The notes: a model not told the origin generated them from the letters alone. A DNA stretch of 32,000 nucleotides from Gemmata obscuriglobus (GCF_008065095.1 NZ_CP042911.1:8190001-8222000), one strand, 5' to 3'. Counted from the first letter of the stretch, positions 1 to 19,686 are shown. Program-made: numbers and translations.

Positions 1-831
1 ACGCTGTCCAGCGACCAACTCTCCGAGGAATACAACCGGGCGCGGGGCGAGTGGCTCGAACAGAACATGCTCATCGGTGAATACAACAAGCAGATTCAGT
101 CGTCGCCCCCCGAGGCCGACAAGCGACGGATCGAGGCCGACCGGTCGGTTGCGGAGGGTCGGCGCGATAAGGCGCGGGGCGACATGGAAGCCCTGGACCA
201 GCAGTACAACCGGGTCAGCACCGACCCGTCCGCGAAGGGCCAGGCGCACGGCCGCGGTCCCGGGTTCTTCCGGGCCAACGCCCCGGACTTCGGCTCGCTG
301 GCCCGCGCCGGCGGGGACCAGTGGACCGTCCTCAACAACGACAACCGCGAGAGCCTGCTCGGGCGCACCATGCGGCCCAACGAGGAGATGCTCCGGATCG
401 CCCACCTGGAAGGGCCGTGGCATCTCGAACTCAAGATCCCGCAGCGGAACGTGGGGCAGGTGCTACGGGCGTTCGCCGACCCGGCCCAGCACCTCACCGA
501 CCCCGACCGCGGCGGCCGCAAGTACCTCGAGGTGGACGTGATCCTGCGGAGCCAGGCTGCCACGCAGTACAAGGGCCGGCTGTACCGCGAGGACCTGATG
601 GCCGAGGCGGTGCCGAACAAGAACGAGCACGACGAGAACGAGCCCGTCGTGACCGCCTACGTCAAACTCAACATCGACGGCATTGATCCCGACAAGTGGA
701 TCCCGCGCGAGCAGTTGACGACTGGTCTGGAAGTGAACACCCGCATCCGGTGCGGCGACCACGCCCTCGGGTACACGCTGTTCCACGGCGTGTGGGAGTG
801 GTTCTACGAGAAGGTGATCTTCTTCTTCTAA
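1..831 (+). CDS. HlyD/membrane-fusion-protein-like periplasmic adaptor, C-terminal part (5' end outside window)
   Basis: Frame 1 is open from base 1, with no stop before the first listed Met at 67; stop at 829-831. A charged coiled-coil-like segment (EADKRRIEADRSVAEGRRDKARGDMEALDQQY) is followed by adaptor beta-barrel-type strands: WHLELKIPQRNVGQVLRAF, YKGRLYRED, VVTAYVKLN, GLEVNTRIRCG. GC3 is high. Confidence 0.6.
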   Translation, partial: TLSSDQLSEEYNRARGEWLEQNMLIGEYNKQIQSSPPEADKRRIEADRSVAEGRRDKARGDMEALDQQYNRVSTDPSAKGQAHGRGPGFFRANAPDFGSLARAGGDQWTVLNNDNRESLLGRTMRPNEEMLRIAHLEGPWHLELKIPQRNVGQVLRAFADPAQHLTDPDRGGRKYLEVDVILRSQAATQYKGRLYREDLMAEAVPNKNEHDENEPVVTAYVKLNIDGIDPDKWIPREQLTTGLEVNTRIRCGDHALGYTLFHGVWEWFYEKVIFFF

Positions 832-1000: not shown

Positions 1001-3073
1001 ATGCGTTCTCGCGTTCTCGCGTTCTCGCTCCTGTCGGCCGCGCTCGGCGGCCTACTCATCGGTTGTAGCCCCAAAAATACCAGTCCGGGCGGCAAAAACG
1101 GCCCCACGGACCCGCCGGCGCCGGTCGACCCCGGTAGCCCGCTCTGGGTCCCCGCGCCGCTGCCGGCCTCTGTCGCGGGCGTCGTCCGCGGCGAACCGCT
1201 GGTGGTTCCCAACTGCGTTGTCCAGTACGACGAGCGGCAGATCGTTTCGGCCGAGGTGGACGGCACCATTGAGCTTCTCGCCACGCCGTACACGCCGGGC
1301 GAACTGAAAGCTCTGATGGACGACCCGAAGCTCACCGAGCAGCAGAAGCGGGACCGCATCCTGTACCACCCGCGCGACACCGGGAACCCCAAGAAGCCGC
1401 TCAAGCGCATCCGCGAGAGCATGCCGGTTGAGGCGCGACAGATCGTCGCGTTCATGGACGACCAACTCGTCAGCGCCCGCATGGAGGGCGCGAAGCAGAT
1501 TAAAGACTCCGCGGTCAGCGCGAAGAAGAACTCGGAGGAGGGGGTCAAGGCGGCGGACGAGAAACTCCGCGTGACCGAGAAAACGATGGGGATCGCCGGC
1601 TCCCAGCGCGAGCGGCTCGACGACCTCATCACCCTGACGCGGTTCCGCGAGAACCAGGACCAAGCGGTCAGCCAGATCGCCAAGTCCGACGCGGACTACA
1701 AGGAAGCGGTGGTGCTGATGGGCCGGCACCAGATCCGGAGCGGGGTGAACGGCACCATCCGTACCATCGCCAAGCGGCCGGGCGAGTACGTGAAGGCCGG
1801 CGACAAGATCATGGAGATCGAGGGCACTGATAAGGTGCGGATCGAGGGCCAGCTCGACGTGCAGTACATCCGCGCGGTGCGGATCGGCATGGAGGTGATC
1901 GTCGAGCCGGCGCTGCCCAGCGCGCCGGAGGCGTCGCACAGCGGCCACCGGCAGGCGGTCACGGGGGTCACGGTCACCGCGCACCCCGACGGCCCGCTCG
2001 TCGTCTCGGTGGGGGCCGACGGCGCGGCCCTGGTGTGGGACCCGCCGCTGGCGAGCAAGAACGCGAACACCGCGGTGTCGGTGCCCCACAACCTGCCGCA
2101 CCCGGTCGGGGTGAAGAGCGTGGCGACCGCCACCGCCGCCGCCCGGACCGTGCTGGTCATCACCGGCGGCGACGACGGCAAGGTACGCGTGTGGGACGTG
2201 ACCAACCGCAAGCAGCTCCCGACCGCGCCGAAGGTGGTGGCCGAGGACGCGCACACGTCCGCGGTGCAGGCCATCGCGGTCAGCCCGGACGGCAAGTACT
2301 TCGCCACCGCCGCCGGCCGCGACGTGTTCGTGTGGGACCTGACCACCGTCAAAAAGATGTACGCGCTGCCGCTGGAGCACCGCGACTCGGTCACCGCGAT
2401 CAACTTCACCCCGCAGTGCACGCTGGTCACCGCCTCGAAGGACAACACCCTGAAGGTGTGGAAGGTTGGCGACAAGGGCGCGGCCGTGGCCCGCACCCTG
2501 GACCACCGGGCCGGTGCGGTCGACGTGCTGGGGGTGAGCAGCGACGGCGCCCGCGTGCTGTTCGACCAGGACAAGGGCCGGCTCGACCTCGTGGACCCGT
2601 CGAACGGGCAGACGGTGGGCCAGATCCAGAACATGGGCTCGGCCGGCGCGTTCTCGACGCTAGCGGTGTTCGAGCCCAACGCCGACGGCGCGAAGGGCGA
2701 CCCGAACCGGCCGCACCTCCTGGCGACCGCGGGCGGGGACGGCGACCTGAAGGGGACGGTGCAGGTGTGGCAGGCGCCGCGGAGCGGGCGCGGCTCGGAA
2801 GTCGGGCGGCTCATCACCCCGGGCCGGGTGCCGGTGACCACGGCCGCGTTCAGCCCGGTCCGCGGCGAGCGGTTCCTGGCTGTGGGCACCAGCAGCGGCG
2901 CGATCCACCTGTGGAAGCCGCCGTCCGAGGCCCGCAAGACTCACACCGGCCGCATCGTCAACATCGACGCCACCGACGCCCGGTACGTCACGGTGCGGGT
3001 GGAACTGGACAACCGCGAGCTGCAACTGATCGACCACAGCATCGCGAACGTGATCATCCCGTCCGACAAGTGA
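1001..3073 (+). CDS. Lipoprotein: HlyD-type adaptor with an internal seven-repeat WD40 beta-propeller
   Basis: ATG at 1001 is preceded by AGAGGA. Lipoprotein signal with lipobox LLIGC. Adaptor lipoyl halves are IVSAEVDGTIELL and IRSGVNGTIRTIAKRPGEYVKAGDKIMEI, separated by a long charged helical hairpin. Seven WD-like units end in VWD, VWDV, VWDL, KVWKV, LDLVD, VQVWQA and IHLWKP. The C-terminal strand TGRIVNIDATDARYVTVRVELDN...IANVIIP resembles the end of the adaptor barrel. Confidence 0.8.
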   Translation: MRSRVLAFSLLSAALGGLLIGCSPKNTSPGGKNGPTDPPAPVDPGSPLWVPAPLPASVAGVVRGEPLVVPNCVVQYDERQIVSAEVDGTIELLATPYTPGELKALMDDPKLTEQQKRDRILYHPRDTGNPKKPLKRIRESMPVEARQIVAFMDDQLVSARMEGAKQIKDSAVSAKKNSEEGVKAADEKLRVTEKTMGIAGSQRERLDDLITLTRFRENQDQAVSQIAKSDADYKEAVVLMGRHQIRSGVNGTIRTIAKRPGEYVKAGDKIMEIEGTDKVRIEGQLDVQYIRAVRIGMEVIVEPALPSAPEASHSGHRQAVTGVTVTAHPDGPLVVSVGADGAALVWDPPLASKNANTAVSVPHNLPHPVGVKSVATATAAARTVLVITGGDDGKVRVWDVTNRKQLPTAPKVVAEDAHTSAVQAIAVSPDGKYFATAAGRDVFVWDLTTVKKMYALPLEHRDSVTAINFTPQCTLVTASKDNTLKVWKVGDKGAAVARTLDHRAGAVDVLGVSSDGARVLFDQDKGRLDLVDPSNGQTVGQIQNMGSAGAFSTLAVFEPNADGAKGDPNRPHLLATAGGDGDLKGTVQVWQAPRSGRGSEVGRLITPGRVPVTTAAFSPVRGERFLAVGTSSGAIHLWKPPSEARKTHTGRIVNIDATDARYVTVRVELDNRELQLIDHSIANVIIPSDK

Positions 3074-3084
3074 CGGCGTGAGTG

Positions 3085-3122
3085 CCGGGCTCCGGCGGCC
3101 GACCCGGGCCGCCGGAGCCCGG
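3085..3122 (+). terminator. Intercistronic GC-rich stem-loop (possible attenuator, terminator or mRNA-stability element)
   Basis: Perfect inverted repeat CCGGGCTCCGGCGGCC (3085-3100) / GGCCGCCGGAGCCCGG (3107-3122) with a 6-nt loop. It starts 12 nt after the stop at 3073 and is followed by the pyrimidine-rich tract gtccgttgctccccctctttcc. There is no clean U-tract. Confidence 0.4.
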
Positions 3123-3164
3123 GTCCGTTGCTCCCCCTCTTTCCACTCACACCCGCACCGACCC

Positions 3165-5432
3165 ATGGCCAACGACCTCATCGCGAACCTGAACAACCCC
3201 GCCGAGCGCCGCAAGTCGGTGCGGCTGCGGGTGCGCCCCGACCTGCAGTCGTTCGAGCAAAAGTACGAAGGGAAGACGTTCACCGTCATCAAGGACCCGG
3301 TGTGCCTGCGGTACTACCGGTTCAGCCGGCAAGAGCACTTCGTGTTCGGCCTGTTCGACGGCAAGCACACGATGGAGGAGGTGCAGGAGGCGTTCGAGGA
3401 GGAGTTCAAGCCGATGCGGCTGGAACTCGCGGACCTGGAGGGGTTCGCCCGCCAGTTGGTGACCGCGGGGCTGGTGCAGAACGAGCAGCCCGGGGCCGCC
3501 CGGCACCTGTTCGAGCGCCGCGCCAAGCAGCGCCGCATGCGGCGGCTCGCCACGGTCAGCAACATCCTGTACCTGAAGATCCCGGTCTTCGACCCGGACC
3601 GGCTGCTCACGTGGATGTACGGCTACCTGCGGTGGGTCTTCACCGCCTGGTTCTTCGCGGCCAGCGTGGGGCTGATGCTCGCCGCGATCGTGCACGTGAC
3701 GCTCCACTACAACACGTTCCAGGCGAAGCTGCCCGCGTACCAGGAGTTCTTCACCTGGAACTCGGTGCTGTACATGTGGCTGTCGCTGGGCGTGGTGAAG
3801 GTGATCCACGAGTTCGGCCACGGGCTGAGCTGTAAGGCGTTCAAGGGCGAGTGCCACGAGATGGGCGTCTTGCTCATGTGCCTCTCGCCGGCGCTGTACG
3901 CGAACGTGACCGACGCGTGGACCCTGGCGGACAAATGGAAGCGGATCATCATCAGCTTCGCCGGCATCTACGTGGAGCTGGTGATCGCGTCGATCGCCAC
4001 GTTCGTGTGGTGGTACACGCCCGCGTACCCGACCGCCAACAACATCGCGCTGTGCATCATGGTGCTGTGCTCGGTGAGCACCGTCATGTTCAACGCCAAC
4101 CCGCTGATGCGGTTCGACGGGTACTACATGCTCGCGGACTGGCTGGAGGTGCCGAACCTGCGGGAGAAGGCGAACCGGTTCCTCAACAACCTGTTCCTGT
4201 CGAAGTGCCTGGGGGTGGACGTGCCGCCGGAGGCGTACATGGCCCCGTGGCGCAAGTGGCTGTTCGTCATCTACGCGGTGGGGAGCTGGGTGTACAAGTG
4301 GGTGGTGACGTTCAGCATCCTGTGGTTCCTGGCGGACTTCATGGGACCGAAACTGAAGGTGCTGAGCCAGATGCTGGCGCTCATGTCGCTGGCGTCGGTG
4401 TTCGTGTTTCCGACCTACAAGGTGATCAAGAACATCCGTCAACGGGGGCGGTTGCCAGACATGAAAGCGGCACGAGTTTACATCACGCTCGCCGTGTTCG
4501 CGGCGTTCGTGGCGGCGTTCTTCTTCCTGCCGCTGCCCGTGAGCCGGGTGCACGAAACGGGTTTGGTCGCGATCGACCCGGAGCACCTCGAAGGGGTCAT
4601 GCTGTCCGAGCCGGCGCGGCTGGTGAAGCTGGAGGGCGCGAGCCCCGGGCAGGCGGTGCGCAAGGGGCAACTCCTGGGCACCTTTGAGAGCACGGCGCTG
4701 GAGATCGAACTGGCCAAGGCGAAAGCGGCGCGGGCGACCCAGCAGCAGACGGCCGACATGCTGAACAAGAAGGTGCTCAAGGCCCAAGGCGCCGGCGACG
4801 CCGCGAACGAGCAGCGGTTCCTGAACGAGTACGTGCGGGCCAAGGCGCAGGCCGACACCGCCGAACGGGACGTGGCCCGCCTGCTGAAGCGCCAGATCGG
4901 GGTGCGGGAGCTGCGGGCCACGCGCGACGGGACGCTCATCACCGCCCCCAAGCGCGACGAGATCGGCAAGCTGTTCGACAAGGGGTACACCGAAACGACC
5001 CCGGTGTTCTCGGTCGGCGACCCGCTGAAGCTGGTGCTCAAAGTGCCGGTGACGCCCTACGACTATCGCTTGCTCAAGGAGGACCTGACGGCGCGCAGCG
5101 AGCTGGACGTGTCGGTGTGCGTGAAGGGCCGAAGCGACCGCACATTCAGCGGCAAGGTCCACCGCGACAAGCTGCCGGCCCAGAACGCGGCGACGATACC
5201 GCTGGCCCTGAGCCAGCGGGGCGGCGGCTCGCTGGCGGTGAAGCCGAACGAAGACCCGAACCTGCTGGCGCCGCTCGCACAGGTATACCTGGTCGAGGTC
5301 GAAATGACCGACCCGGACACCGCGATCGACCCGGGGCAGCTCGTGAGCGTGAAGATCCACTCGCGGTGGCGGAGCGGGGCGTGGTGGGTGGCCCGAGAAC
5401 TGTCCAACGCGCTCGACATTGGTCTGTATTGA
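3165..5432 (+). CDS. Peptidase M50 (site-2-protease-like) membrane metalloprotease fused to a C-terminal HlyD-type adaptor domain
   Basis: HEFGH zinc motif at 3807-3821. Second M50 motif NANPLMRFDG at 4092-4121. Several hydrophobic helices surround both motifs. The C-terminal third has adaptor features: a coiled coil (LEIELAKAKAARATQQQTADMLNKK...), then LRATRDGTLITAP, LKLVLKVPVTPYDYRLL and IDPGQLVSVKI. I prefer the ATG at 3165 (MANDLIANL) over the listed start at 3078, which would run through the hairpin and almost abut the upstream stop. Confidence 0.8.
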   Translation: MANDLIANLNNPAERRKSVRLRVRPDLQSFEQKYEGKTFTVIKDPVCLRYYRFSRQEHFVFGLFDGKHTMEEVQEAFEEEFKPMRLELADLEGFARQLVTAGLVQNEQPGAARHLFERRAKQRRMRRLATVSNILYLKIPVFDPDRLLTWMYGYLRWVFTAWFFAASVGLMLAAIVHVTLHYNTFQAKLPAYQEFFTWNSVLYMWLSLGVVKVIHEFGHGLSCKAFKGECHEMGVLLMCLSPALYANVTDAWTLADKWKRIIISFAGIYVELVIASIATFVWWYTPAYPTANNIALCIMVLCSVSTVMFNANPLMRFDGYYMLADWLEVPNLREKANRFLNNLFLSKCLGVDVPPEAYMAPWRKWLFVIYAVGSWVYKWVVTFSILWFLADFMGPKLKVLSQMLALMSLASVFVFPTYKVIKNIRQRGRLPDMKAARVYITLAVFAAFVAAFFFLPLPVSRVHETGLVAIDPEHLEGVMLSEPARLVKLEGASPGQAVRKGQLLGTFESTALEIELAKAKAARATQQQTADMLNKKVLKAQGAGDAANEQRFLNEYVRAKAQADTAERDVARLLKRQIGVRELRATRDGTLITAPKRDEIGKLFDKGYTETTPVFSVGDPLKLVLKVPVTPYDYRLLKEDLTARSELDVSVCVKGRSDRTFSGKVHRDKLPAQNAATIPLALSQRGGGSLAVKPNEDPNLLAPLAQVYLVEVEMTDPDTAIDPGQLVSVKIHSRWRSGAWWVARELSNALDIGLY

Positions 5433-5620: not shown

Positions 5621-6526
5621 TTACAGATTGACCGTCGCGTTTTCGGGCGACCCTTGCTGCCGGCCGCGCGCCGCGGCAAGGGCGCCCGCGATCATCCCCT
5701 TCAGCGAAATCACTCGCCGCGCCGGCCAACGTAGCGCGTGAGCGTACCACCGCAGCGACGTGACCGGCTCGGCGGCGCGCATCACGAATCCGATTGTTTG
5801 ACACGTCGAGGCGTAGCCGTCCGCGATCACCTCGGCCGGCACGGTGTCGCCGACCGCGTACCGCGATTCGGCCCGGTGCATGATCGACATCGCCGTATCG
5901 ACGCGGTCGCGGAGCTTTTTCGACAGGTTCCCGTGCCCGGTGCGGTACCGCACGAGCGGCTCGTCCACGAAATCGAACCGGTGGAACTTCGAGACGCGGA
6001 GCCACAGGTCGTAATCGATCGCCAAATCCCACTGCGGGTCGAACGCGCCGACATGCGAGAGCACGTCGCGCCGCACCACCGCCGACGAGAAGCAGACGAA
6101 GTTCTGGGTGAACAGGTCGGGCAGGACCGAGCCGCGGAGCGGCTGCGTTTCGCTCTTCGCGGGCACCGGTCGGCCGTCTTCGTCCATCAACGTGCGCCGG
6201 CAGAACACCACCCCCACCTCGGGCTTCTCGGCGAACACCGCGAGTTGCTTTTCGAGCTTGGTAGGTTCCCAGGCGTCGTCGGCGTCGAGGAACGCGACCA
6301 GCGCCGCACGGCTGAGACTGATCCCGAGGTTCTTGGCCCGCGGCTGGCCGAGCGTGTCCGAGCGGAAGTACCTCACCCGCGGGTCGCTCAGGAACGGCCG
6401 CGCGACCGCGGGCGTGTGATCGGTCGAGCCGTCATCGACGATCACGAGTTCCCAATCGCCGAACGTCTGCGCGAGCACCGATTCGACCGCCTCGGGCAGG
6501 AAGCGGGCGTAGTTCTTCGCGGCCAT
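5621..6526 (-). CDS. Family 2 glycosyltransferase
   Basis: GT2 signature VSIVMAAKNYARFLPEAVESVLAQTFGDWELVIVDDGSTD, followed by FLDADD. The start is uncertain. ATG at 6526 is the conservative choice. An in-frame TTG at 6574 or the GTG at 6694 (GTGA overlap with the upstream stop) would read through repeat copy A. Confidence 0.8.
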   Translation of the reverse strand: MAAKNYARFLPEAVESVLAQTFGDWELVIVDDGSTDHTPAVARPFLSDPRVRYFRSDTLGQPRAKNLGISLSRAALVAFLDADDAWEPTKLEKQLAVFAEKPEVGVVFCRRTLMDEDGRPVPAKSETQPLRGSVLPDLFTQNFVCFSSAVVRRDVLSHVGAFDPQWDLAIDYDLWLRVSKFHRFDFVDEPLVRYRTGHGNLSKKLRDRVDTAMSIMHRAESRYAVGDTVPAEVIADGYASTCQTIGFVMRAAEPVTSLRWYAHALRWPARRVISLKGMIAGALAAARGRQQGSPENATVNL

Positions 6527-6548
6527 CACGATGGAGACGGCGGGAAAA

Positions 6549-6682
6549 CCTACCCTCCCGGCCCCCCTCCCCAAAGGGAAGGGGGAGGAAGAACCGCTAA
6601 GTACCGCTAACGTTTCCGGTGCGCCGGACGCGAGGCGCGAGGACTTCCCCCTTCCCTTCAGGGAGGGGGCGGGGGGGGTAGG
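6549..6682. repeat. G/C-homopolymer palindromic element, copy A (inverted pair of about 39-nt units)
   Basis: CCTACCCTCCCGGCCCCCCTCCCCAAAGGGAAGGGGGAG (6549-6587) is an approximate reverse complement of CTTCCCCCTTCCCTTCAGGGAGGGGGCGGGGGGGGTAGG (6644-6682). It belongs to the same family as the units at 14447-14477 and 14912-15132. Confidence 0.8.
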
Positions 6683-6690
6683 TTCCTCCG

Positions 6691-8034
6691 TCACGCGCTC
6701 AACTCCTGCATGCGCTCACGGGCGACGTTGGAAATGCAGAACCGGTACTTCCCGCTCGGCTCTTGCGGAATCGCGTCTACCAATTCCACCTCGTGCGAGA
6801 CGGTATCCCCGAACGTGTCCTGCACCAGCGCCGCGATCTTCCGGCGGCTGTTGTCCCCGAAGGCGGCGTCCGCGACGAGCCGGATTCGCAGTTGGGTGAT
6901 CGACTCTTGCACGATCTGCACCTGCGCCGCCCCCGGCACCAGCACCGCGAAGTTCTCCGTGAGCGAGATGCCGGAGATCAGGTTCCCCGCTGGTGTGAGC
7001 ACGTAATCGGCGTCGCGGCCCTCGACGCGCTCGATCAGCGGCAGCCCGCGGCCGCACCGGCACGCCCGGTTCGACGGCACCACCACGTCGCCCACCTGAT
7101 ACCGGATCAGCGGCATCGCCCGGTTACAGATGTCGGTGATCAGCAGTTTGCCGTCGGCCGGCACCTCGGTGTACAGCGAGTCCGCGTTGACGTGGAGCCC
7201 GTTGTGTTCCTCGCACTCGCTCGCGATGAGGCTGACTTCCTCGCATCCGTACCGGTTGGTCACCTTGCAGCCGAACACCTCCTCAATGACGGCCCGCTGC
7301 CAGTCGTGGAGGATCATCGCGGTGGAGATGATGCCGTTCGGGCGAATGTCGCTCCCGCCGGACTTCTTGAGCGCGCACGCGAGCAGGTACAGCGAGTGCG
7401 CGTGCCCGAAGATCAGCCCGGGGCGGTGCCGGCGGATAGTGCGCGCGAACTCCGCGACGCGCTGGTCGTTGAGGTTGAGCGTGTCGAGGTAGACGGCGCG
7501 GTCGAAGAAGTGGTTGCGGAGCCGTCCCTTCAGCCCGAAGTGCCGGTACTCGGGGTTGCCCCACACCTTCGCGACCCGCTGCCCGAGCCGGTACCCTGAC
7601 CACTGGTCCGAGCGGACGGTGCAGGCCGTCTTCCACTGCATCGCGGGCTCGTCGCAGTAGATTTTGAGAGGTACGCCGGTCGAACCGGAGGTGGTCTTCA
7701 CCCGGCACCGGGCGGTGTCGTAGGCCGACGACACCAGCGCCCGGTTGTGCCGGCGGATGTCCGCTTTCGTGAGGACCGGGAAGGCTTCGAGGTCGGCGAG
7801 TTCGCGGACATCGGACGGGTGCACGCCCGCCCGCGACCAGGCGGCGCGGTAGTACGGCACCGTGTCCCAGGCGTGCTGGAGCTGAACTTTGAGGGCCGCG
7901 AGCTGCCGCGCCCGGATCACGTCGGGCGGGTCGAACTGCGTCCGCTCCACGGTCCGCAGGTGCCTGAGGTGCTTGCTGCCCGCCCGCCACGCCATGAACG
8001 GGTGCATCAGGTGTCGGTTCAGGGTGTCGAGCAT
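6691..8034 (-). CDS. Phenylacetate-CoA ligase-like (CapK / F390-synthetase family) adenylate-forming enzyme
   Basis: ATG at 8034. AMP-binding P-loop TTSGSTGVPLK. Family-typical layout: YYR...AG...FPVLTKADIR, NRYGCEE, GRxDD-like ERVEGRDADYV, and C-terminal SGKYRF. Confidence 0.8.
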   Translation of the reverse strand: MLDTLNRHLMHPFMAWRAGSKHLRHLRTVERTQFDPPDVIRARQLAALKVQLQHAWDTVPYYRAAWSRAGVHPSDVRELADLEAFPVLTKADIRRHNRALVSSAYDTARCRVKTTSGSTGVPLKIYCDEPAMQWKTACTVRSDQWSGYRLGQRVAKVWGNPEYRHFGLKGRLRNHFFDRAVYLDTLNLNDQRVAEFARTIRRHRPGLIFGHAHSLYLLACALKKSGGSDIRPNGIISTAMILHDWQRAVIEEVFGCKVTNRYGCEEVSLIASECEEHNGLHVNADSLYTEVPADGKLLITDICNRAMPLIRYQVGDVVVPSNRACRCGRGLPLIERVEGRDADYVLTPAGNLISGISLTENFAVLVPGAAQVQIVQESITQLRIRLVADAAFGDNSRRKIAALVQDTFGDTVSHEVELVDAIPQEPSGKYRFCISNVARERMQELSA

Positions 8035-8067
8035 CCGTGCGGTCCTTGAGTGGGGCGATCCGTCGCG

Positions 8068-8631
8068 TTACTTCTTGTCCTTCGGTGCCGGAAAACGCTT
8101 TTGCTCTTCCCAGATGGGCGGTTCGCCGAGTACTCGCTGCGTGTTCCGCTCGATCACGACCGTTTTCATCGGCTTCGAGAGCACGAGGAAGGCGTAGTGT
8201 GCGGTCGTCGCTTCCTGCGCCTTCGAGAGATCAGGGGATGTATCAACGGCCCCTCCCTCGGTTTGGTAGTACAGGTTTTCGTAGCCGATCAGCAGCGCTT
8301 CGCCGCGCCGCCGGGGCGTCACCCGACCTTCAGGGGAACCGCCGTAGAAAACGGCCACAACGTAATGCGTGTCAAAGTCGACGTCGAAGCTCTGATCGGC
8401 GTCGGTGAAGAGTCGCGCTGCCGCGTCGCCGCGGTGCTCTTTCCACAACTTCTGCCAATCTCGTTCGTTCGCAACGACTTCAAACTTGTTCTTCCGGATC
8501 GCGCTGTGCGAACCGGTCAGAATGAGCGTCGGCTTGAACTTGACCTCTTGCGGTTGTTTCGGTTCCTGAGCCAAGCCGCCAAGAACAACCGCGCACAAGG
8601 TTATCGAGCCGACTGCGGCGCGAGCGAGCAT
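8068..8631 (-). CDS. Secreted hypothetical protein
   Basis: Signal-peptide-like N-terminus MLARAAVGSITLCAVVLGGLAQEP. ATG at 8631 is preceded by AGAGGTG (alternative GTG at 8637). High GC3. Tightly packed between the epimerase and ligase genes. Confidence 0.6.
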   Translation of the reverse strand: MLARAAVGSITLCAVVLGGLAQEPKQPQEVKFKPTLILTGSHSAIRKNKFEVVANERDWQKLWKEHRGDAAARLFTDADQSFDVDFDTHYVVAVFYGGSPEGRVTPRRRGEALLIGYENLYYQTEGGAVDTSPDLSKAQEATTAHYAFLVLSKPMKTVVIERNTQRVLGEPPIWEEQKRFPAPKDKK

Positions 8632-8644
8632 GGGCACCTCTGGG

Positions 8645-9574
8645 TCACAGGAGCGTCTTCTGCCACTCCACTTGCTTCGCGAGGCCCTCGTCGGTGCCGG
8701 TGGTGGGCTTCCACCCGAGGTGCTTGAACAGCTTCGTCACGTCGGCGCCGGTCGAGAGCTGGTCGCCGGCACGGGCGGGGTGCCGCTCGATGATCGCGGG
8801 CTTGCCGATGATCCGCTCGAGCTTCTTGAACACCTCGAGCACGGTGACGAGTTCGCCGCCGCCGAGGTTGAACGCCTCGCCCGGCATCGCCTGCGTGGCG
8901 CGGACCGTCGCCTCCACGCAGTCGTCGATGTACGTGTTCCCGCGGACCTGGAGGCCGTCGCCGGTCAGCTTGATCGGCTTCCCTTGTAGGATGGCGTTGA
9001 TGAACAGGTGGTAGCCCATCTCCGGGCGCTGGCGCGGCCCGTACACGCTGAAATACCGCAGCACCACGCTGGGCACGCCGAACTCGTCGGCGTACACGCG
9101 GCACAGTTGCTCGGCGGCCAGCTTGGTGATGCCGTAGGGCGAGCCCGGGCGGGTCGGGAGCGACTCGTCGCCGCTCGCGTACTTGCCGTACACGCTCGAC
9201 GTGCTCGCGTAAATCACGCGCTTCAGCGTGGGCGAGCCCTTGAGCGACTCCAGAAGGCGGTGGGTCGCGGTGAGGTTGTGGCGGTTGTAGCTGTCGAAGT
9301 CGAGCCAGCTCCGCGTCAGCCCGGCCATCGCGGCGAGGTGGAACACCCACTCGGCGCCGGCCGTCACGTCCGCCGGCACGCCCTGCGACAGGTCGAGTTC
9401 GCGCAGCGTGAAGTGCGGCTTGTCGATCAGGTGCGCGAGGTTGCGCTCCTTGACCGGCCGCGGGTAGTAGTCGGTGAAGCAGTCGATGCCGGTGACCGCG
9501 TGGCCGTCGGCGAGTAACCGCTCGCACAGGTGCGAGCCAATGAACCCGGCGGCGCCGGTGACGATGCAACGCAT
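8645..9574 (-). CDS. NAD-dependent sugar epimerase/dehydratase (SDR family)
   Basis: Rossmann motif MRCIVTGAAGFIGSHL at the ATG at 9574. Catalytic-region motifs ASTSSVYG and YGITK (YxxxK). The listed start at 9622 adds 16 non-conserved residues. Confidence 0.85.
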   Translation of the reverse strand: MRCIVTGAAGFIGSHLCERLLADGHAVTGIDCFTDYYPRPVKERNLAHLIDKPHFTLRELDLSQGVPADVTAGAEWVFHLAAMAGLTRSWLDFDSYNRHNLTATHRLLESLKGSPTLKRVIYASTSSVYGKYASGDESLPTRPGSPYGITKLAAEQLCRVYADEFGVPSVVLRYFSVYGPRQRPEMGYHLFINAILQGKPIKLTGDGLQVRGNTYIDDCVEATVRATQAMPGEAFNLGGGELVTVLEVFKKLERIIGKPAIIERHPARAGDQLSTGADVTKLFKHLGWKPTTGTDEGLAKQVEWQKTLL

Positions 9575-9644
9575 GGTGAGCTTTCCCCCGCCGCAAACTG
9601 TAACAGGGTGCGGAAGCCACATTCAAGCCCGACCGGATCAAGCT

Positions 9645-11911: not shown

Positions 11912-13636
11912 TCAAAACTCCATCTCGCGGAGCGATTTCGCCCCCGCGCGGAGCGGCAGCACCGCCGCCGCCGCGCCCAGAACCAGCCCCACCGGGATGC
12001 CCGCGTACACCCACGGGTTGATTTTGGCCGCCCCCGCGGTCGCGCCCTTCGCGAGCTGGGCCACGTGGAACGGCACCACCATCACGCCGATGACGGCGAC
12101 CAGGAACGCGAGCCCGGTCACCATGTTCACGGTGCCGCCGAACCCGACCACGATCTTCGACGGGTCCGTCTCGCGGAACGTCGGTAGGTACGCGCCCAGG
12201 CCCACGTTCAGCGCGCTCAGCCCCAGGGCCGCCACCGCCACCGCCACGGCGTGCAGCGCCAGCCCTTCGAGCGGCAGCCCGAGGAGCGCGTCGCTGGTCA
12301 GGATGAGCGCCTCGGCCACGACCAGCGACCCGGTCGCCGCGAACGCGAACTTGCCCCACAGGATCTGGTCGCGGCTCACCGGGGTGAGCCCCAGGATCCA
12401 GAACTTCCGCCCCTCCAGCGAGATCAGCGGGAACACGAACCGGCTCAGCCCGGCGCACAGGAGGATCGCCGTCCCGCTCAGGTTCATGAGGCTAATGGCG
12501 TACTTGTCCATGATGCCGAGGTCGGCGGAGTAGTACTGCCGGAAGTTGCTGGCCCCGATCAGCATCAGCACGCCGAAGATGGCCAGCACGGCCCACTGGG
12601 TCGGGTCGCGCCGGAAGGTGCGAAAGTCCTTCACCACCAGCACGCGCGTCCGGCGGTCGAGGTAGCACACCAGCGCCTCCATGAGCCGGTCGAGCGGGCT
12701 CGTCTTGTAGACCTTCTTGTCGCGCCCGAAGGCGGAGAGGCGGTCGTAGGCGGTGCGGTACACGCGCTTCGCGACCCACGCCGCGCCCAGGAAGCACAGC
12801 AGCCCGTTGCTCCACACCTGGGCCAGCGGGACGAGCGCGGCGGCGAGGTCCCCGCGGGCCGCGGCCATCACGCCGCGGGTCATCCAGTGGCTCGGCGAGA
12901 ACCCGCTGCGGAGCAGGTCGAACTGGCCGATCAGGTCGTCCAGCTCCCGCCCGCTGCTCACCAGCGACCGGCGGAACCCCACGAGAATTCGGTAACCCCA
13001 GAACAGCAGCCCGGCGGCGACCACGAGCCCCACGAGCGCGAAGAACTGCTTGCGGTTCCGCGGCATGTACCGCACCAGCAGGAGGCACCCCGCGGCCGAC
13101 ACCGAGCCCGGCAGGATGACGTACCCGAGCAGGTACAGCGGCAGCAGCGGGTAGAAGTACCACGGCACGCCGGACATGAGCCCGTAGGCCACGAAGATGG
13201 GCACGCCGAGGATCACGAAACCCCACGAGCTGAACGTTACCGCGGCCTGGAACTTGGTGACGAAGATCTGGTCGGCGCGGGCCGGCGAGCACAGCAAGAA
13301 CCGCGCCTCGGGGCTGGTGAACAGGCTTGCATAGAGGATGATGCCGGTCGAGAAGATGAGCATCGTCCCGAGCGTGAAGAACAGCAGCTCGAAGAGCGCC
13401 TCGACGATGGCCCCCTTGAACGGGATGTTGTTCACCCGGAGCTGGTTGAACAGGTACAGGCTGACCGCGAACGTGAACGCCGCGACCACGGCGCTGGTGG
13501 CGATCATGGTGACGAGCCGCACGCGGCCGTTCTCGAGCGCGACGCGCAGCCCGTTGCGGAACAGTTGCAGCCGCAGGCGCCGGAACAGGGCCGCTTGCGC
13601 GGGCGCCGCCGGCCGGGCGTCGATGGTTGGGGACAT
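11912..13636 (-). CDS. ABC-2 / putative ABC-exporter type polytopic permease
   Basis: ATG at 13636 (MSPTIDARP...). About 12 hydrophobic helices in two halves. It lies 41 nt downstream of the ABC ATPase gene. The listed 861-aa ORF continues upstream only by reading out of frame across the ATPase gene. Confidence 0.75.
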   Translation of the reverse strand: MSPTIDARPAAPAQAALFRRLRLQLFRNGLRVALENGRVRLVTMIATSAVVAAFTFAVSLYLFNQLRVNNIPFKGAIVEALFELLFFTLGTMLIFSTGIILYASLFTSPEARFLLCSPARADQIFVTKFQAAVTFSSWGFVILGVPIFVAYGLMSGVPWYFYPLLPLYLLGYVILPGSVSAAGCLLLVRYMPRNRKQFFALVGLVVAAGLLFWGYRILVGFRRSLVSSGRELDDLIGQFDLLRSGFSPSHWMTRGVMAAARGDLAAALVPLAQVWSNGLLCFLGAAWVAKRVYRTAYDRLSAFGRDKKVYKTSPLDRLMEALVCYLDRRTRVLVVKDFRTFRRDPTQWAVLAIFGVLMLIGASNFRQYYSADLGIMDKYAISLMNLSGTAILLCAGLSRFVFPLISLEGRKFWILGLTPVSRDQILWGKFAFAATGSLVVAEALILTSDALLGLPLEGLALHAVAVAVAALGLSALNVGLGAYLPTFRETDPSKIVVGFGGTVNMVTGLAFLVAVIGVMVVPFHVAQLAKGATAGAAKINPWVYAGIPVGLVLGAAAAVLPLRAGAKSLREMEF

Positions 13637-13677
13637 GGGCCACCAGTGGGTGTGAGGGGCGGGCCGGGTCAGACGCG

Positions 13678-14427
13678 CTACGCGAGGGGCAGCGCCGGCT
13701 GCGGCGCGTCTTCCTCGGTGATCTTCATGAACAGGTCTTCCAGGCTGCCGTCCATCGCGGCCTGTTTGCGCAGGTCGGTCAGTGTGCCGCACCCGAGGAG
13801 CGTGCCGCGGTCCAGAATCCCGATGCGGTCGGCGAGCTCCTGGGCGATGTCGAGCGTGTGCGTGCTGAGGAACACCGTCATCCCCTCGGCCGCGAGCCGG
13901 CGGAGCAGCGTTTTCAGCTCGCGGATGCTCTTCGGGTCGAGCCCCACGGTCGGTTCGTCGGCGATGAGCAGCTTGGGCTCGTGCACCAGCGCCGCGGCGA
14001 ACACGGTGCGCTGGCGCATCCCGTGCGAGTACCGCTCGGTGAGGTCGTCCACGAACTCGTTGAGGTGGAACAGCTCGATCACCTCCTCGATCTTGTCCGC
14101 GGACCGGCCCGGGGGCATTCCGTACAGGTCCGCGGTGAACTGGAGGAACTCGCGGCCGGTGAGCTTCTCGTACAGGAACGGCTGGTCGGGGACGTAGCTG
14201 ACGAGCGCGCGGGCCTGGTCGCCCTGGGCGCGCACGTCGAACCCGCCGATGCGGACGCTCCCCGTGGTGGGGAACAGGAGCCCGCAGAGCATCTTGATGG
14301 TGGTGGTCTTCCCGGCCCCGTTCGGCCCCAGGAACGCGAACAGTTCGCCCGCGGGCACGTGCAGGGTAAGATCCCGCACCGCGACCTTCGGGCCGTAGAG
14401 CTTCGTGACGGTGTCGATTTGGATCAT
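13678..14427 (-). CDS. ABC transporter ATP-binding protein
   Basis: Start MIQIDTVTKLYG at the ATG at 14427. Walker A GPNGAGKTT, signature-like YSHGMRQR, Walker B LLIADEPTVGLD, H-loop LSTH. Confidence 0.9.
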   Translation of the reverse strand: MIQIDTVTKLYGPKVAVRDLTLHVPAGELFAFLGPNGAGKTTTIKMLCGLLFPTTGSVRIGGFDVRAQGDQARALVSYVPDQPFLYEKLTGREFLQFTADLYGMPPGRSADKIEEVIELFHLNEFVDDLTERYSHGMRQRTVFAAALVHEPKLLIADEPTVGLDPKSIRELKTLLRRLAAEGMTVFLSTHTLDIAQELADRIGILDRGTLLGCGTLTDLRKQAAMDGSLEDLFMKITEEDAPQPALPLA

Positions 14428-14446
14428 GGTAAACTCGCTCCGAAGA

Positions 14447-14477
14447 CCCACCCCCACCCCTCCTAAAGGGAGGGGAG
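14447..14477. repeat. G/C-homopolymer palindromic element, solo unit (copy C)
   Basis: CCCACCCCCACCCCTCCTAAAGGGAGGGGAG resembles the left unit of copies A and B. It lies in the 66-nt gap between the DUF559 stop (14494) and the ABC ATPase start (14427). Confidence 0.65.
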
Positions 14478-14493
14478 CGAGACAGGCGGGCAC

Positions 14494-14880
14494 TCATCCG
14501 GCCGGTGATCCCGTAGCTGCTGCGATGCGTTCCGCACAGGCCGCGGCGATGCGATCAAGGACGGTCGTGATGCTCTCGGTCACATTTTCGTTGCGGAACC
14601 GCAGGACAAGCAGGCCGAGCATGGCGAACGCCTGATCGCGAGCCGCGTCGTACTCGACCTGGGTGTCGTGAACGCCGCCGTCCACCTCGACAACGACGCC
14701 GGCGGCGTGGCAGTAGAAATCGGCGACGAACCCGTGAACGATCTGCTGGCGGCGGAAATGGAGGCCGTTTAATTTCGACGCACGGAGGTGCGACCACAGG
14801 ACTTGTTCGGCCGGAGTCATTTCGCGGCGGAGCCGGTACGCGAGTTCGCGCTTGGCCGGATCAACGGCTTGTCCGGTCAC
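14494..14880 (-). CDS. DUF559 (Vsr-like) endonuclease domain protein
   Basis: Family-typical AKRELAYRLRREMTPAEQVLWSHLR...GLHFRRQQIVHGFVADFYCHAAGVVVEVDGGVHD...RD...LGLLVLRFRNENV. I prefer the GTG at 14880 because it retains the conserved ARxLRR helix (alternative ATG at 14820). The listed start at 15162 reads through repeat copy B. Confidence 0.75.
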   Translation of the reverse strand: MTGQAVDPAKRELAYRLRREMTPAEQVLWSHLRASKLNGLHFRRQQIVHGFVADFYCHAAGVVVEVDGGVHDTQVEYDAARDQAFAMLGLLVLRFRNENVTESITTVLDRIAAACAERIAAATGSPAG

Positions 14881-14911
14881 GAGGTGCGGCACGGGCGGGC
14901 GGCGCGAAGAA

Positions 14912-15132
14912 CCTACCCCCCCGGCCCCCCTCCCTAAAGGGAAGGGGGAGTCCGGTTGGCTCGCCTCCTGCGCACCGGACTCGCTATCGGCGCACGAAGG
15001 TTCATACTCACCTTCTGCCCCGGGAAGGGTGGGACGCGTCGCACCTGCTTCTGGCGCGCCAGGTTTGCTATCGGTGCACGAAGGTTCGATCTCCCCCCTT
15101 CCCTTTAGGGAGGGGGGGCCGGGGGGGGTAGG
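14912..15132. repeat. G/C-homopolymer palindromic element, composite copy B
   Basis: CCTACCCCCCCGGCCCCCCTCCCTAAAGGGAAGGGGGAG (14912-14950) is a near-perfect reverse complement of CTCCCCCCTTCCCTTTAGGGAGGGGGGGCCGGGGGGGGTAGG (15091-15132). An internal direct repeat (GCTATCGGCGCACGAAGGTTCATACTCACC and GCTATCGGTGCACGAAGGTTCGATCTCCCC) marks an extra degenerate unit. Confidence 0.85.
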
Positions 15133-15165
15133 TCTTGGCGCCCGGGGCTTGCGTGCACACATCCC

Positions 15166-16044
15166 TCAATCCTCCCGCTCGAACCGGAGCGCCTCACCCC
15201 CCTCGAACGCCTCCTGGCGCAGCACCTTCCCGTCGCGCACCTGGACCCACGTGCGGGCGATCGCGTCCTCCTTGCGGCGGTACTCGATCACCCAGCACGG
15301 GATGTCCTGGTTCTGCCAGCTCAAGACGCGAGGCTCGCCCGCCACCTCCGCGAGCAGCGGCTCCTTCGGCTTCGCCGCGCCGAGCGGCAGCCCGCTCTTG
15401 GCGAGCTGCTTGCGAATGAGGTCCGCGAGCGCGTCCTGGAGCGGGTTGTACTCGTGAACCACCCACGAGCGCATCCCGCCGTGTATCCCCGCGATCCGGT
15501 TCACCGGCTGCAACGGGTTCAGCGGCTGCCCCTGCCGCACCGGGACCGGTTCCAGATCGGCCTCGAAGTCGCCGAACGAGCTCTTCACCGACCCGTGGCC
15601 GGTCAGCGTGCCGCCGCTGACGGTCCCGCGGACGTCGATCTGCCCCCCGAACCGCGACTTGCCCGCGACCACTTCCAGCTTCCCGCTCAGCGCCTGCTCC
15701 TTGAAGTCGCCGGCGCGGGTCATGCGCACGTCCGAGGTGGCGTCCGGTACCTCCAGGGCGACGCCGCCCTGTTCGAGCCGGAGCTTGCTGTACCGGTAAG
15801 TGAACTGGAACTCGTCGGTCGCGTCGTCGTACTTCATCAGCGTGGTCAGCTTCCCGATGGGCTGCCCGTTGCGGTACAGGGTCCACTTCGCGGGGACGTT
15901 CTGCTTCGCCTCGTCGGCCAGTTCGATGGCGACCGGGGGCGGCCCGGACGCGAACAGCCGCGGCCACACGTCCCGGTACGCGACGTACCCGGTGGTGGCG
16001 ATCCAGAACGCGACGATCCCCGCGACGGCAATACGCGGCGGCAT
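15166..16044 (-). CDS. Membrane-anchored hypothetical protein
   Basis: ATG at 16044 is preceded by AGGTGA. N-terminal TM helix IAVAGIVAFWIATTGYVAY. High GC3. The listed 781-aa ORF extends upstream only as the antisense of ald. An alternative start MMKS lies at 16130. Confidence 0.6.
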   Translation of the reverse strand: MPPRIAVAGIVAFWIATTGYVAYRDVWPRLFASGPPPVAIELADEAKQNVPAKWTLYRNGQPIGKLTTLMKYDDATDEFQFTYRYSKLRLEQGGVALEVPDATSDVRMTRAGDFKEQALSGKLEVVAGKSRFGGQIDVRGTVSGGTLTGHGSVKSSFGDFEADLEPVPVRQGQPLNPLQPVNRIAGIHGGMRSWVVHEYNPLQDALADLIRKQLAKSGLPLGAAKPKEPLLAEVAGEPRVLSWQNQDIPCWVIEYRRKEDAIARTWVQVRDGKVLRQEAFEGGEALRFERED

Positions 16045-16212
16045 GAGGTCACCTGCGACAGGAACCGGCGAGACGTGGCGCCTTCCCAATCCTAGGTAAC
16101 TGACGGCGCGGGGGGCAACCGATTTCATCATGAGAGCCGCGCGACTTGATTCACTCCCCCGCAGCCCCACAATGCCTCTACACACCTCTCCGTTGAATTT
16201 CCGAGGCCATTC

Positions 16213-17316
16213 ATGATTGTCGGCGTTCCGAAAGAAGTGAAGCAGGACGAGTACCGGGTGGCGATGGTGCCCGCGGGCGTGGAAGAGCTGACCCGGGCGG
16301 GGCACACGGTGCTCATCCAGAGCGGCGCCGGCGCGGGGTCCGGCATCAGCGACGACCAGTACGCCGCGACCGGCGCGCAGATCGTGTCGAACGACGCCGA
16401 GGTGTGGGCGCGGGCGGACCTGATCGTGAAGGTGAAGGAGCCGATGCCGTCCGAGTGGCCCCACATGCGCGCGGGCCAGACGGTGTTCACCTACTTCCAC
16501 TTCGCGGCCGACCGGCACCTGACCGAGGCCGTCCTGAAGTCGGGCATCACCGCCATCGCCTACGAGACCATCCGCGACGCGAAGGGCACCCTGCCGCTGC
16601 TCACCCCGATGAGCGAGGTGGCGGGGCGCATGAGCATCCAGGAGGGCGCGAAGTACCTGGAGCGCCCGTTCGACGGCCGCGGCATCCTGCTCGCCGGCGT
16701 CCCCGGCGTGCCGCCGGCCACGGTTTCGGTCATCGGCGCGGGGGTGGTGGGTGCGAACGCCGCCCGGGTCGCGGCGGGGCTGGGCGCGAACGTGTTCATC
16801 CTCGACGTGAACCTGGACCGGCTGCGGTACATCGACGACGTGATGCCGCAGAACGTGACCACGGTGTTTAGCAACCGGCTGAACATCCGCGAGTGCCTCC
16901 AGTTCTCGGACCTTGTTATCGGGGCGGTGCTGATCCCGGGCGCGAAGGCCCCGAACCTGGTTACGCGGGACGACCTGAAGTACATGCTCCCGCGGGCGGT
17001 GGTGATCGACGTGGCGATCGACCAGGGCGGGTGCTTTGAGACGAGCCGCCCGACCACGCACGCGAACCCGACCTACATCGTGGACGACATCGTTCACTAC
17101 TGCGTCACGAACATGCCCGGGGCGGTGGGCCGCACCAGCACCTACGCCCTCACGAACGTGACCCTTCCTTACGCGATGCAACTGGCCAGCAAGGGGCCGG
17201 AACGGGCCGTGAAGGAGAGCCCGGCGCTGCTGGCGGGCGTCAACATCAAGGCCGGGAAGGTGACGAACCAGGCCGTGGCCGAAACCTTCGGCCTGGAGTG
17301 CGTGCCGGCCGTGTAA
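16213..17316 (+). CDS. ald: Alanine dehydrogenase
   Basis: Full-length match by eye to the Ald family: MIVGVPKEVKQDEYRVAMVPAGV..., NAD fold VIGAGVVGANAA, ...DVAIDQGGCFETS...HYCVTNMPGAV. Confidence 0.92.
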   Translation: MIVGVPKEVKQDEYRVAMVPAGVEELTRAGHTVLIQSGAGAGSGISDDQYAATGAQIVSNDAEVWARADLIVKVKEPMPSEWPHMRAGQTVFTYFHFAADRHLTEAVLKSGITAIAYETIRDAKGTLPLLTPMSEVAGRMSIQEGAKYLERPFDGRGILLAGVPGVPPATVSVIGAGVVGANAARVAAGLGANVFILDVNLDRLRYIDDVMPQNVTTVFSNRLNIRECLQFSDLVIGAVLIPGAKAPNLVTRDDLKYMLPRAVVIDVAIDQGGCFETSRPTTHANPTYIVDDIVHYCVTNMPGAVGRTSTYALTNVTLPYAMQLASKGPERAVKESPALLAGVNIKAGKVTNQAVAETFGLECVPAV

Positions 17317-17422
17317 GGCAAATGAAGGAACATCCGCGGCGCGGGCGAGCACAGTACGAGCGACAAGCCTGTCTCTGTTGCATCGAACCGCGCTCGCCCG
17401 CGTCGCGCTGCGGATCGAAATC

Positions 17423-18747: not shown

Positions 18748-18823
18748 TTGCCCTTCGCGCCGGTTTCGGTTCGCGTTATGTGCATGCCACTCATGGCCCA
18801 TTTCCGGCCCGGGAGGCTTCAGC

Positions 18824-19663: not shown

Positions 19664-19686
19664 CCTGCGAACACCCGCACATTCAC

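Follow-up and report, generated by a model that had tools for sequence, protein, structure and literature searches.

A fused RRE, M50 intramembrane protease and periplasmic adaptor in Gemmata obscuriglobus: putative core of a type I-like export module

A conserved gene module around a truncated, secondary SecA_DEAD protein was described computationally by Kamneva, Poudel & Ward in 2015 (PMC4452313). It comprises three proteins with HlyD domains (an M50+HlyD fusion, a plain HlyD protein and a GAF+HlyD protein), with or without an OEP/TolC protein, and was proposed to form a machine resembling the type I secretion system (T1SS), with SecA_DEAD as the ATPase and the M50 protein as a possible pore; neither a PqqD domain or RiPP recognition element (RRE; RiPP, ribosomally synthesised and post-translationally modified peptide) nor a substrate is mentioned there. 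In the literature that we searched, no follow-up to this work was found. In another field, the daptide protein MpaP has been termed an 'RRE-dependent intramembrane peptidase', the fusion of an RRE to a site-2 protease (S2P) defining the daptide class (Ren et al. 2023, PMC10028931), and for the M50 enzyme EpeP a double role in cleavage and export of its peptide has been suggested (PMC10885120). Here, we report on a gene of Gemmata obscuriglobus, hereafter gene C, that lies in a stretch of 32,000 nucleotides (NZ_CP042911.1:8190001-8222000; GC about 67%), hereafter the window, which is 99% identical to one of the loci used for comparison (L001). Gene C belongs to the module of Kamneva et al.: the M50+HlyD gene stands beside a GAF+HlyD gene (gene A, 1-831) and a HlyD-only gene (gene B, 1001-3073), both upstream of it. 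We think it rather likely that its product is the inner-membrane core of an envelope-spanning, T1SS-like export module, in which the RRE would read a leader, the M50 protease would clip it and the adaptors would export the cargo.

As an object, gene C is not novel and is an ordinary, well-conserved member of its family. The initial annotation of this DNA, made from the sequence alone, had presented the architecture as distinct from that of YydH-type peptide proteases; the M50+HlyD fusion and its neighbours have been in print since 2015 (PMC4452313), daptides offer known cases of an RRE fused to an S2P (PMC10028931) and the annotation pipeline PGAP already names relatives 'PqqD family'. The same annotation had asked whether orthologues lie beside known pump genes and have an established function: adaptor genes do adjoin them, and no function of the module has been established. 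The family counts more than 3,794 homologues, and a search at E<=1e-3 returned 11,861 clusters at 50% identity, the best 150 of which are almost all 720-760 amino acids long and align from about residue 15. Every named match to gene C in the big protein searches is from Planctomycetota. The gene is conserved across this phylum and apparently single-copy per genome in the Gemmatales ortholog group. Relatives are called 'site-2 protease family protein', 'hemolysin D' or 'HlyD family efflux transporter periplasmic adaptor subunit' in the databases, and the protein itself is a 'putative peptide zinc metalloprotease protein' at JGI.

The open reading frame (ORF) extends from a GTG at 3078 to 5432. 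The true start is most likely the ATG at 3165, which gives a protein of 755 amino acids, because orthologues open with MANDL or MDLTT and the 29 codons upstream are unconserved. One polypeptide does join an RRE, an intramembrane protease and a periplasmic adaptor, as had first been suggested; this is now drawn from fold, motifs and predicted topology. The parts of gene C are the following (TM, transmembrane helix):

3165-5432, plus strand: gene C, fusion of an RRE, an M50 intramembrane metalloprotease and a periplasmic adaptor (profile matches, motifs, alignment, AlphaFold2 model)
3222-3482, plus strand: predicted cytoplasmic, PqqD-like RRE, residues 20-106 (AlphaFold2, Foldseek, Pfam PqqD across the family, invariant residues), with modelled strands at 20-23, 28-34, 37-44 and 49-53, a short one at 65-69 and a closing one at 104-106, and helices at 55-63, 70-80 and 88-101
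3498-3560, plus strand: basic juxtamembrane linker helix, residues 112-132 (ERRAKQRRMRR; AlphaFold2 helix, nine K/R in the 38 residues before TM1)
3594-4445, plus strand: M50 membrane core, residues 144-427, six TMs and a beta-hairpin at 232-247 (AlphaFold2, hydropathy, PF02163, NF041824 alignment to residue 413)
3807-3821, plus strand: HEFGH zinc-binding and catalytic motif in TM2 (H215, E216 and H219, invariant)
4092-4121, plus strand: NANPLMRFDG motif, residues 310-319 (N310, N312, P313, D318 and G319 invariant), with D318 as the third zinc ligand of S2P-type enzymes
4467-4526, plus strand: TM7, residues 435-454, which anchors the adaptor in the membrane and corresponds to the N-terminal TM of MacA (AlphaFold2, MacA alignment, K/R-rich preceding loop)
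4527-5429, plus strand: predicted periplasmic adaptor of MacA/MexA/HlyD type, residues 455-755 (AlphaFold2, MacA profile match, Foldseek), with a barrel-sandwich at 461-508, an alpha-hairpin of 72 residues at 510-581 (nucleotides 4692-4907), a beta-barrel at 646-732 and a conserved C-terminal helix at 738-750

The N-terminal region, first described as PqqD/RRE-like, has the fold of an RRE. A separate AlphaFold2 model of this domain, built from 43 sequences, has a predicted local distance difference test score (pLDDT) above 90 over residues 21-100 and the strand-strand-strand-helix-helix-helix order of RREs. When this model was compared with the PDB by Foldseek, the seven best matches were all RRE domains (TbiB1, lasso B1 and PqqD; probability 1.0, TMt 0.63-0.74), headed by leader-bound TbiB1 (5v1u/5v1v; E 9e-4, TMt 0.74) and including lasso B1 6jx3 and PqqD 5sxy. 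CteB, TglI, SkfB and MadB appeared lower down, and no ordinary DNA-binding winged helix was among the top matches. Fold comparison was needed here because a PDB search by sequence profile of the N-terminus gave weak PqqD matches (E 0.18 and 0.55). Across the family, Pfam PqqD (PF05402) matches all 43 N-termini at E<=1, the best at 1.5e-6; the Methylosinus homologue scores 28.7 bits, over the Pfam gathering threshold of 23.4, and several Planctomycetaceae homologues bear a precomputed PF05402 match. In an alignment of 58 homologues (28-100% identity), the invariant residues R24, D26, V41, K43, P45, L48, Y50 and R52 are found on the strands and cluster on beta2-beta3. The strand motif D-x5-(Y/F)-x-R is kept across Gemmata, Gimesia, Alphaproteobacteria and E. 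coli plasmids (for example KDPVCLRYYRF, HDRLSNRYHRL and ADPVRNLYFRL), and such cross-phylum conservation fits a conserved ligand.

The protease was also borne out. HEFGH (3807-3821), NANPLMRFDG (4092-4121) and the RRE-like core FVFGLFDGKHTMEEVQEAF (3339-3395) were each confirmed to the base, and Pfam Peptidase_M50 (PF02163) matches gene C with 32.8 bits against a gathering threshold of 27.2 (E 5.7e-8), well outside what chance would give. Residues 215-219 sit within a modelled helix spanning 198-225. H215, E216, H219, N310, N312, P313, D318 and G319 are invariant in all 58 aligned homologues, so that the two zinc and catalytic motifs noticed at the outset persist down to 28% identity, and the catalytic residues of HExxH and NxxPxxxxD are also kept in the Thalassospira and E. 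coli homologues. Judged from its motifs, the M50 domain is catalytically complete, and since its zinc and catalytic residues are invariant in the 58 homologues, the protease appears to be under selection as an enzyme. Ten residues past HExxH, a further segment, ECHEMG (residues 229-234, window 3849-3866), leads into the beta-hairpin by the active site. E229, H231, M233 and G234, together with C223, are invariant in the planctomycete family, and the region is partly kept in Proteobacteria (VGHMG in E. coli, VRELG in Thalassospira); the segment may take part in binding metal or substrate.

The C-terminal 300 or so residues are HlyD-like, in agreement with the initial annotation: a profile match to MacA has an E value of 3.7e-11, and Foldseek matches the adaptor to MexA, MacA, ZneB, AcrA and EmrA at E of about 1e-13. 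In the alignment with MacA (9qgy_G), residues 431-659 of the gene C profile pair with residues 8-263 of the chain, MacA's own TM anchor included. NCBIfam RND_mfp (TIGR01730) scores 34.8 bits against a cut-off of 94.9 (E 8.5e-9, residues 495-664) and the Pfam HlyD_D23 match is sub-threshold; by these scores the domain is a divergent adaptor. The full-length AlphaFold model (pLDDT 83, predicted TM-score 0.67) has seven TMs, with HExxH within the second. The odd number of TMs, the K/R-rich segments before TM1 and TM7 and the charge-poor, even-numbered short loops lead us to predict an N-in/C-out topology, in which the cytoplasmic side holds both the RRE and the active site of M50, and the periplasm the adaptor. 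This prediction, from TM count and charge distribution, agrees with the orientation proposed at the outset and with that of the MacA anchor.

Gene C is preceded by the genes of two other adaptor proteins:

1-831, plus strand: gene A, 3' part, running off the start of the window (frame 1 open from base 1; 96% identical to L001 5283-7658); the full protein, of about 740-790 amino acids, has two cytoplasmic GAF-like domains, one TM and a periplasmic adaptor (Pfam GAF and RND_mfp/BSH in orthologues)
1001-3073, plus strand: gene B, predicted lipoprotein of 690 amino acids (LLIGC lipobox), with a HlyD-type adaptor and a WD40 beta-propeller (Pfam HlyD_3 E 7e-11, HlyD_D23, WD40 E 4.6e-28)

Of 80 genome loci, 49 have all three genes in the order A-B-C, and 10 more have B-C up to the contig end; the genes downstream of C are not conserved. 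B invariably lies between A and C in Gemmatales. In Planctomycetaceae and Gimesia (32% identity), A is present but divergent and the position of B is taken by B', an adaptor of 300-340 amino acids without WD40; taking Planctomycetaceae and Proteobacteria together, this position holds a plain adaptor of 270-340 amino acids. At locus L087, A and C are directly adjacent, with no B, and a SecA-like gene stands beside A. The sister genus Limnoglobus has a SecA-like gene directly after C (L025-L027 and L068), 43% identical to that of L087; in Alphaproteobacteria, too, such a gene comes directly after C. Two side observations belong here. The multi-blade WD40 propeller of gene B looks like a Gemmatales-specific periplasmic add-on. 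Directly upstream of A, outside the window (L001 4902-5270), is a gene for an apparently all-helical protein of 122 amino acids, shared by about half of the Gemmatales loci (48-89% identity) and called as a 135-amino-acid gene in Frigoriglobus. It has no Pfam or NCBIfam match; we rejected it as a precursor, as it is not precursor-like; perhaps it has a regulatory role or is a fourth part of the module.

The proteobacterial relatives, reached by tblastn of residues 1-460 of gene C against plasmids, are homologous to the planctomycete proteins end to end. Those of Alphaproteobacteria are about 29% identical to gene C, with the RRE inside the alignments, and PGAP names them 'PqqD family peptide modification chaperone', 'PqqD family protein', 'site-2 protease family protein' or 'HlyD family ... 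adaptor'. The RRE-M50-adaptor protein of Thalassospira aligns with gene C over 733 columns (E 4e-58), its 622-amino-acid adaptor with A (E 6e-14, covering the second GAF-like domain, the TM and the adaptor) and its 287-amino-acid adaptor with B' (E 9e-18). Pontibrevibacter, Methylosinus, Thalassospira, Pseudosulfitobacter and Mesorhizobium share an operon plan that runs from a giant protein of about 4,000-13,000 amino acids through a DUF3467 protein, an adaptor and the RRE-M50-adaptor protein to a protein of 640-670 amino acids, a short adaptor and, in some, TolC; order and completeness differ by locus, and in Pseudosulfitobacter a SapC gene comes between the RRE-M50-adaptor gene and that of the 640-670-residue protein and DUF3467 is not annotated. 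Pfam identifies the 640-670-residue protein as truncated SecA, with the domains SecA_DEAD, SecA_PP_bind and P-loop_SecA (E down to 1e-103). All five that we checked are without the C-terminal third of the canonical SecA length, and RefSeq or GenBank call them 'prepilin peptidase', 'DEAD/DEAH box helicase' or 'preprotein translocase subunit SecA'. Their genes are located as follows:

L093, 22189-24105: truncated SecA
L095, 23041-25065: truncated SecA
L099, 9102-11063: truncated SecA
L090, 11106-13091: truncated SecA
L096, 9135-11093: truncated SecA

Azospirillum and E. coli IncF plasmids have a shorter operon (giant protein - TolC - adaptor - adaptor - M50-adaptor), in which the middle adaptor is also shorter (449-454 amino acids) and apparently without GAF. 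One compact example is on E. coli plasmid NZ_CP104683.1 (96967-116712), where the giant protein is Ig-like and 4,457 amino acids long. At 99% identity or more, the E. coli module is present in 24 of 5,426 complete genomes, at 21 plasmid and four chromosomal places, and it offers a tractable test system.

The giant proteins, whose genes directly adjoin those of full-length homologues of gene C in Alpha- and Gammaproteobacteria, are candidate cargo. In all seven readable cases, their N-termini consist of a basic stretch followed by LE-x-R (the LEPR-XLL motif):

Methylosinus: ...FDTLEPRVLLNAD
Mesorhizobium: ...FEALEPRLLLSAD
Pseudosulfitobacter: ...MEALEPRFLLSAD
Thalassospira: ...VEPIEPRILLSAD
Pontibrevibacter: ...LDPMEPRVLLSAD
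Azospirillum: MALEPRFMFDAAG
E. coli: ...RFALESRQLFDGAA

The 24-residue LEPR-XLL model of NCBIfam, NF012209, gives 28 bits on two of these leaders and 16 on a third. Having no hydrophobic core, the leaders, as read from their residues, do not qualify as signal peptides of the Sec type. The same 24-amino-acid tag is described in a 2026 preprint on Chlorochromatium proteins of 20,647 and 36,806 amino acids, encoded with sapC and tolC; it reads these giants via the classical T1SS and mentions neither M50 nor PqqD. In Planctomycetota, evidence for tagged cargo is thin, and two proteins are worth recording. In L087, the genes that flank the module encode a 2,676-amino-acid, protease-like protein (12395-20425, minus strand) and a truncated SecA (5744-7603, plus strand). 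The protease-like protein, which lies by C and has Peptidase_M10, PPC and Trypsin domains, opens with ...RRFPSAAESLEDRLYLSA (…KKRRFPSAAESLEDRLYLSA; ...ESLEDRLYLSA), which resembles a proteobacterial LEPR-XLL leader. At L050, a large protein oriented divergently from A has the N-terminus MRRRTVVPLLTLLEDRTTPA (...LLEDRTTPA).

We can propose the following sequence of events. The RRE (residues 20-106) would take the short N-terminal leader of the cargo as an extra beta-strand; in the proteobacterial operons this cargo would be the co-encoded giant protein, with its basic stretch and LE-x-R-x-LL (LEPR-XLL) as the leader. The leader would then be passed to the cytoplasm-facing M50 active site (H215/E216/H219/D318), where the protease would cut it off. 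The truncated SecA-like ATPase, where present, could drive the unfolded chain outward, and the adaptor modules of A, B and C would build a periplasmic conduit to a TolC-type outer-membrane channel. In Gemmata, the cargo would bear a similar tag and be encoded elsewhere. A SecA-like gene of this strain is presumably also located elsewhere in the genome.

Several points weigh against this scheme. The RRE of gene C itself scores 15.5 bits with Pfam PqqD (E 0.022, residues 58-104), under the gathering threshold, and the best Foldseek E value for the domain is just 9e-4. What would link the RRE to LEPR-XLL is gene adjacency, and the neighbouring protein in Phyllobacterium has no LE-x-R leader. In the window, a cargo candidate, a SecA-like gene and a TolC gene are all absent, and no LE-x-R-tagged protein is encoded there. 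In about 1.3 Mb of planctomycete flanking sequence, only two LE-x-R-like N-termini were found, those of L087 and L050 (both by the module), and NF012209 gives no score to either. The E. coli and Azospirillum operons encode no ATPase, and apart from the M50 protein no inner-membrane pore is apparent in the module.

Other explanations have to be set against the export scheme. The initial annotation had leaned towards small peptides, and gene C could be a RiPP protease and exporter whose RRE binds the leader of a small precursor encoded elsewhere, whose M50 domain cuts it and whose adaptor passes the peptide through the periplasm. The RRE fold, the JGI name, the fact that true mpaP genes are detectable as homologues and the matches to NF041824 (daptide_HExxH, E 1.2e-50, residues 39-413) and NF058609 (YydH/LiaK, 3e-12) all speak for it, but the curated cut-offs are missed widely, with 172.7 against 300 bits and 46.7 against 225. 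Near the more than 80 loci, no small ORF, radical SAM enzyme, aminotransferase, methyltransferase or ABC (ATP-binding cassette) exporter is conserved, and neither is any precursor or modifying enzyme. All ORFs of 25-130 amino acids outside A, B and C and within 2.5 kb of the cluster were clustered across loci, and the recurring clusters were only frame shadows of neighbouring genes; the initial remark that the window has no precursor-like small ORF is therefore upheld, and it extends to the orthologous loci. Among the planctomycete loci examined, no small ORF, tailoring enzyme, outer-membrane factor or pump of the ABC, resistance-nodulation-division (RND) or major facilitator superfamily (MFS) type is consistently nearby, and since neither a small conserved ORF nor a tailoring enzyme is, the locus does not qualify as a RiPP gene cluster. 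A phylum-wide, apparently single-copy gene is also unlike a biosynthetic gene cluster, the adjacent candidate cargo in Proteobacteria is a giant protein, and the strand motif of the RRE does not vary between phyla, unlike RiPP RREs, which diverge rapidly. We regard the RiPP framing as unlikely.

Regulated intramembrane proteolysis, in which C, in the manner of a classical S2P, would hold A at its cytoplasmic tail by the RRE and cleave it when gated by adaptor contacts, freeing the GAF module, is in our view quite unlikely. A and C co-occur without exception, and are directly adjacent at L087; A, a type II membrane protein, resembles typical S2P substrates in its single TM and N-in orientation, and its GAF domains point to sensing (PMC4452313). 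Yet A has neither a DNA-binding nor a sigma/anti-sigma module, its N-terminus is variable, with no obvious conserved strand-like motif in an alignment from six lineages, and the middle adaptor of E. coli and Azospirillum apparently does without GAF; the TolC, SecA-like, SapC and giant cargo genes of the relatives favour export over signalling. That the M50 domain serves purely as a scaffold or pore for translocation, with proteolysis irrelevant and the RRE only docking the cargo, seems improbable to us. It takes up the suggestion that the M50 TM domain could be the missing inner-membrane pore (PMC4452313), and the module has no second conserved membrane protein of the polytopic kind. The invariance of all catalytic residues at 28% identity, extending to Thalassospira and E. 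coli, would be unexpected for a structural role only, and we know of no S2P fold that conducts polypeptides. It is highly improbable that gene C encodes the ordinary drug or metal efflux adaptor that most database names imply: its C-terminal domain is a genuine MacA/MexA-type adaptor, but none of the loci examined has a conserved ABC, RND or MFS pump nearby, and the name disregards the first 455 residues, with the RRE and the M50 core.

Within the export scheme, a more specific idea can be put forward tentatively, with somewhat less than even confidence: the RRE may be the cargo receptor of a distinct, ABC-free secretion route, with LEPR-XLL as a cleavable, non-Sec leader on giant surface proteins, and A-B-C of Gemmata may be its planctomycete form, serving tagged proteins scattered over the genome. 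This link goes beyond the literature searched, in which no paper joins RRE, M50-HlyD and LEPR-XLL; the NCBIfam curators' notes lie outside that literature. How the largest bacterial proteins (4,000 to more than 30,000 amino acids) are exported where there is no ABC-type T1SS or two-partner system is mostly unexplained, and the LEPR-XLL tag has a database model with no reader assigned to it. To our knowledge, RRE domains have so far been known solely as leader readers in RiPP biosynthesis; their role would widen from small-peptide chemistry to protein secretion. If true, a concrete mechanism would also be at hand for a module of Planctomycetota and Proteobacteria, to which PMC4452313 adds Verrucomicrobia, Nitrospirae and Chlorobi, and it would become possible to re-annotate thousands of genes mislabelled 'efflux adaptor', 'prepilin peptidase' or 'DEAD/DEAH helicase'.

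The rest of the window has a housekeeping character (MutL, a BamB-like propeller, DUF559, GT2, an epimerase and cytochrome c), and no RiPP-like genes were found there. At 5621-9622 on the minus strand, a polysaccharide-type block encodes a GT2 glycosyltransferase, a 447-amino-acid protein, a small secreted protein and an NAD-dependent epimerase; the 447-amino-acid protein has no Pfam match and its Frigoriglobus orthologue has a CapK_C domain. The block is conserved in close Gemmata/Frigoriglobus relatives only, and for this reason we do not count it as part of the module. Further on, at 11912-14497 on the minus strand, a long ORF with an ABC_tran_2 (PF16949) membrane domain opens with about 300 Arg/Pro-rich codons. 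This stretch looks as if an overlapping gene for an ABC ATPase (ORF 13678-14493, same strand) had been read out of frame, and the long ORF probably represents two adjacent genes and not one protein of 861 amino acids.

Among described systems, the closest is the 'Cluster 1' Peptidase_M50+HlyD group of PMC4452313, with which gene C shares the fusion of M50 to a HlyD/biotin-lipoyl adaptor, the GAF+HlyD and HlyD-only neighbours and the range of phyla, Planctomycetes included. It differs in the extra WD40 propeller of B and in having neither a SecA_DEAD nor an OEP gene next to it in the window. Like gene C, MpaP carries an N-terminal RRE on an M50 protease; the two are homologous over RRE and M50 (true mpaP genes are 27-29% identical to gene C across the M50 core), and leader recognition followed by cleavage is thought to apply to both. 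Unlike gene C, MpaP acts in Gram-positive bacteria, has no adaptor domain and is encoded beside short precursors, tailoring enzymes and an ABC exporter; no daptide precursor (C-terminal Thr) and no MpaB, MpaC, MpaD or MpaM enzyme was found in the window or at the more than 80 related loci. The epipeptide protease EpeP/YydH (NF058609) and the pearlin proteases TglG/TmoG are likewise membrane M50 enzymes acting on ribosomal peptides, and EpeP sets a precedent for coupling cleavage to passage. The homology of gene C to EpeP/YydH is weak (46.7 against 225 bits), the operon context of these enzymes is another one and their substrates are small; no YydF- or YydG-like gene occurs near gene C or at related loci, and we know of no fused adaptor in EpeP/YydH or TglG/TmoG.

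As in MacA, MexA and HlyD, the C-terminal 320 amino acids of gene C consist of a TM anchor, a barrel-sandwich, an alpha-hairpin and a beta-barrel, and TolC is encoded in proteobacterial operons. In contrast to these proteins, the adaptor is fused behind a protease and has no ABC, RND or MFS partner, and there are three adaptor-like proteins per system. Classical T1SS cargo carries a C-terminal signal that is not cleaved; in the module, the conserved cargo tag of the relatives is N-terminal, and there is no ABC transporter. In bacteriocin export by peptidase-containing ABC transporters (PCATs), a cytoplasm-facing C39 cysteine protease removes the leader of a small-peptide cargo, an ABC motor powers the system and a HlyD-type adaptor takes part. 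The PCAT logic, leader removal on entry to an export machine with a HlyD-type adaptor, would be shared by gene C, whereas the parts are unrelated: here they are an RRE, an M50 protease and possibly a SecA-like motor.

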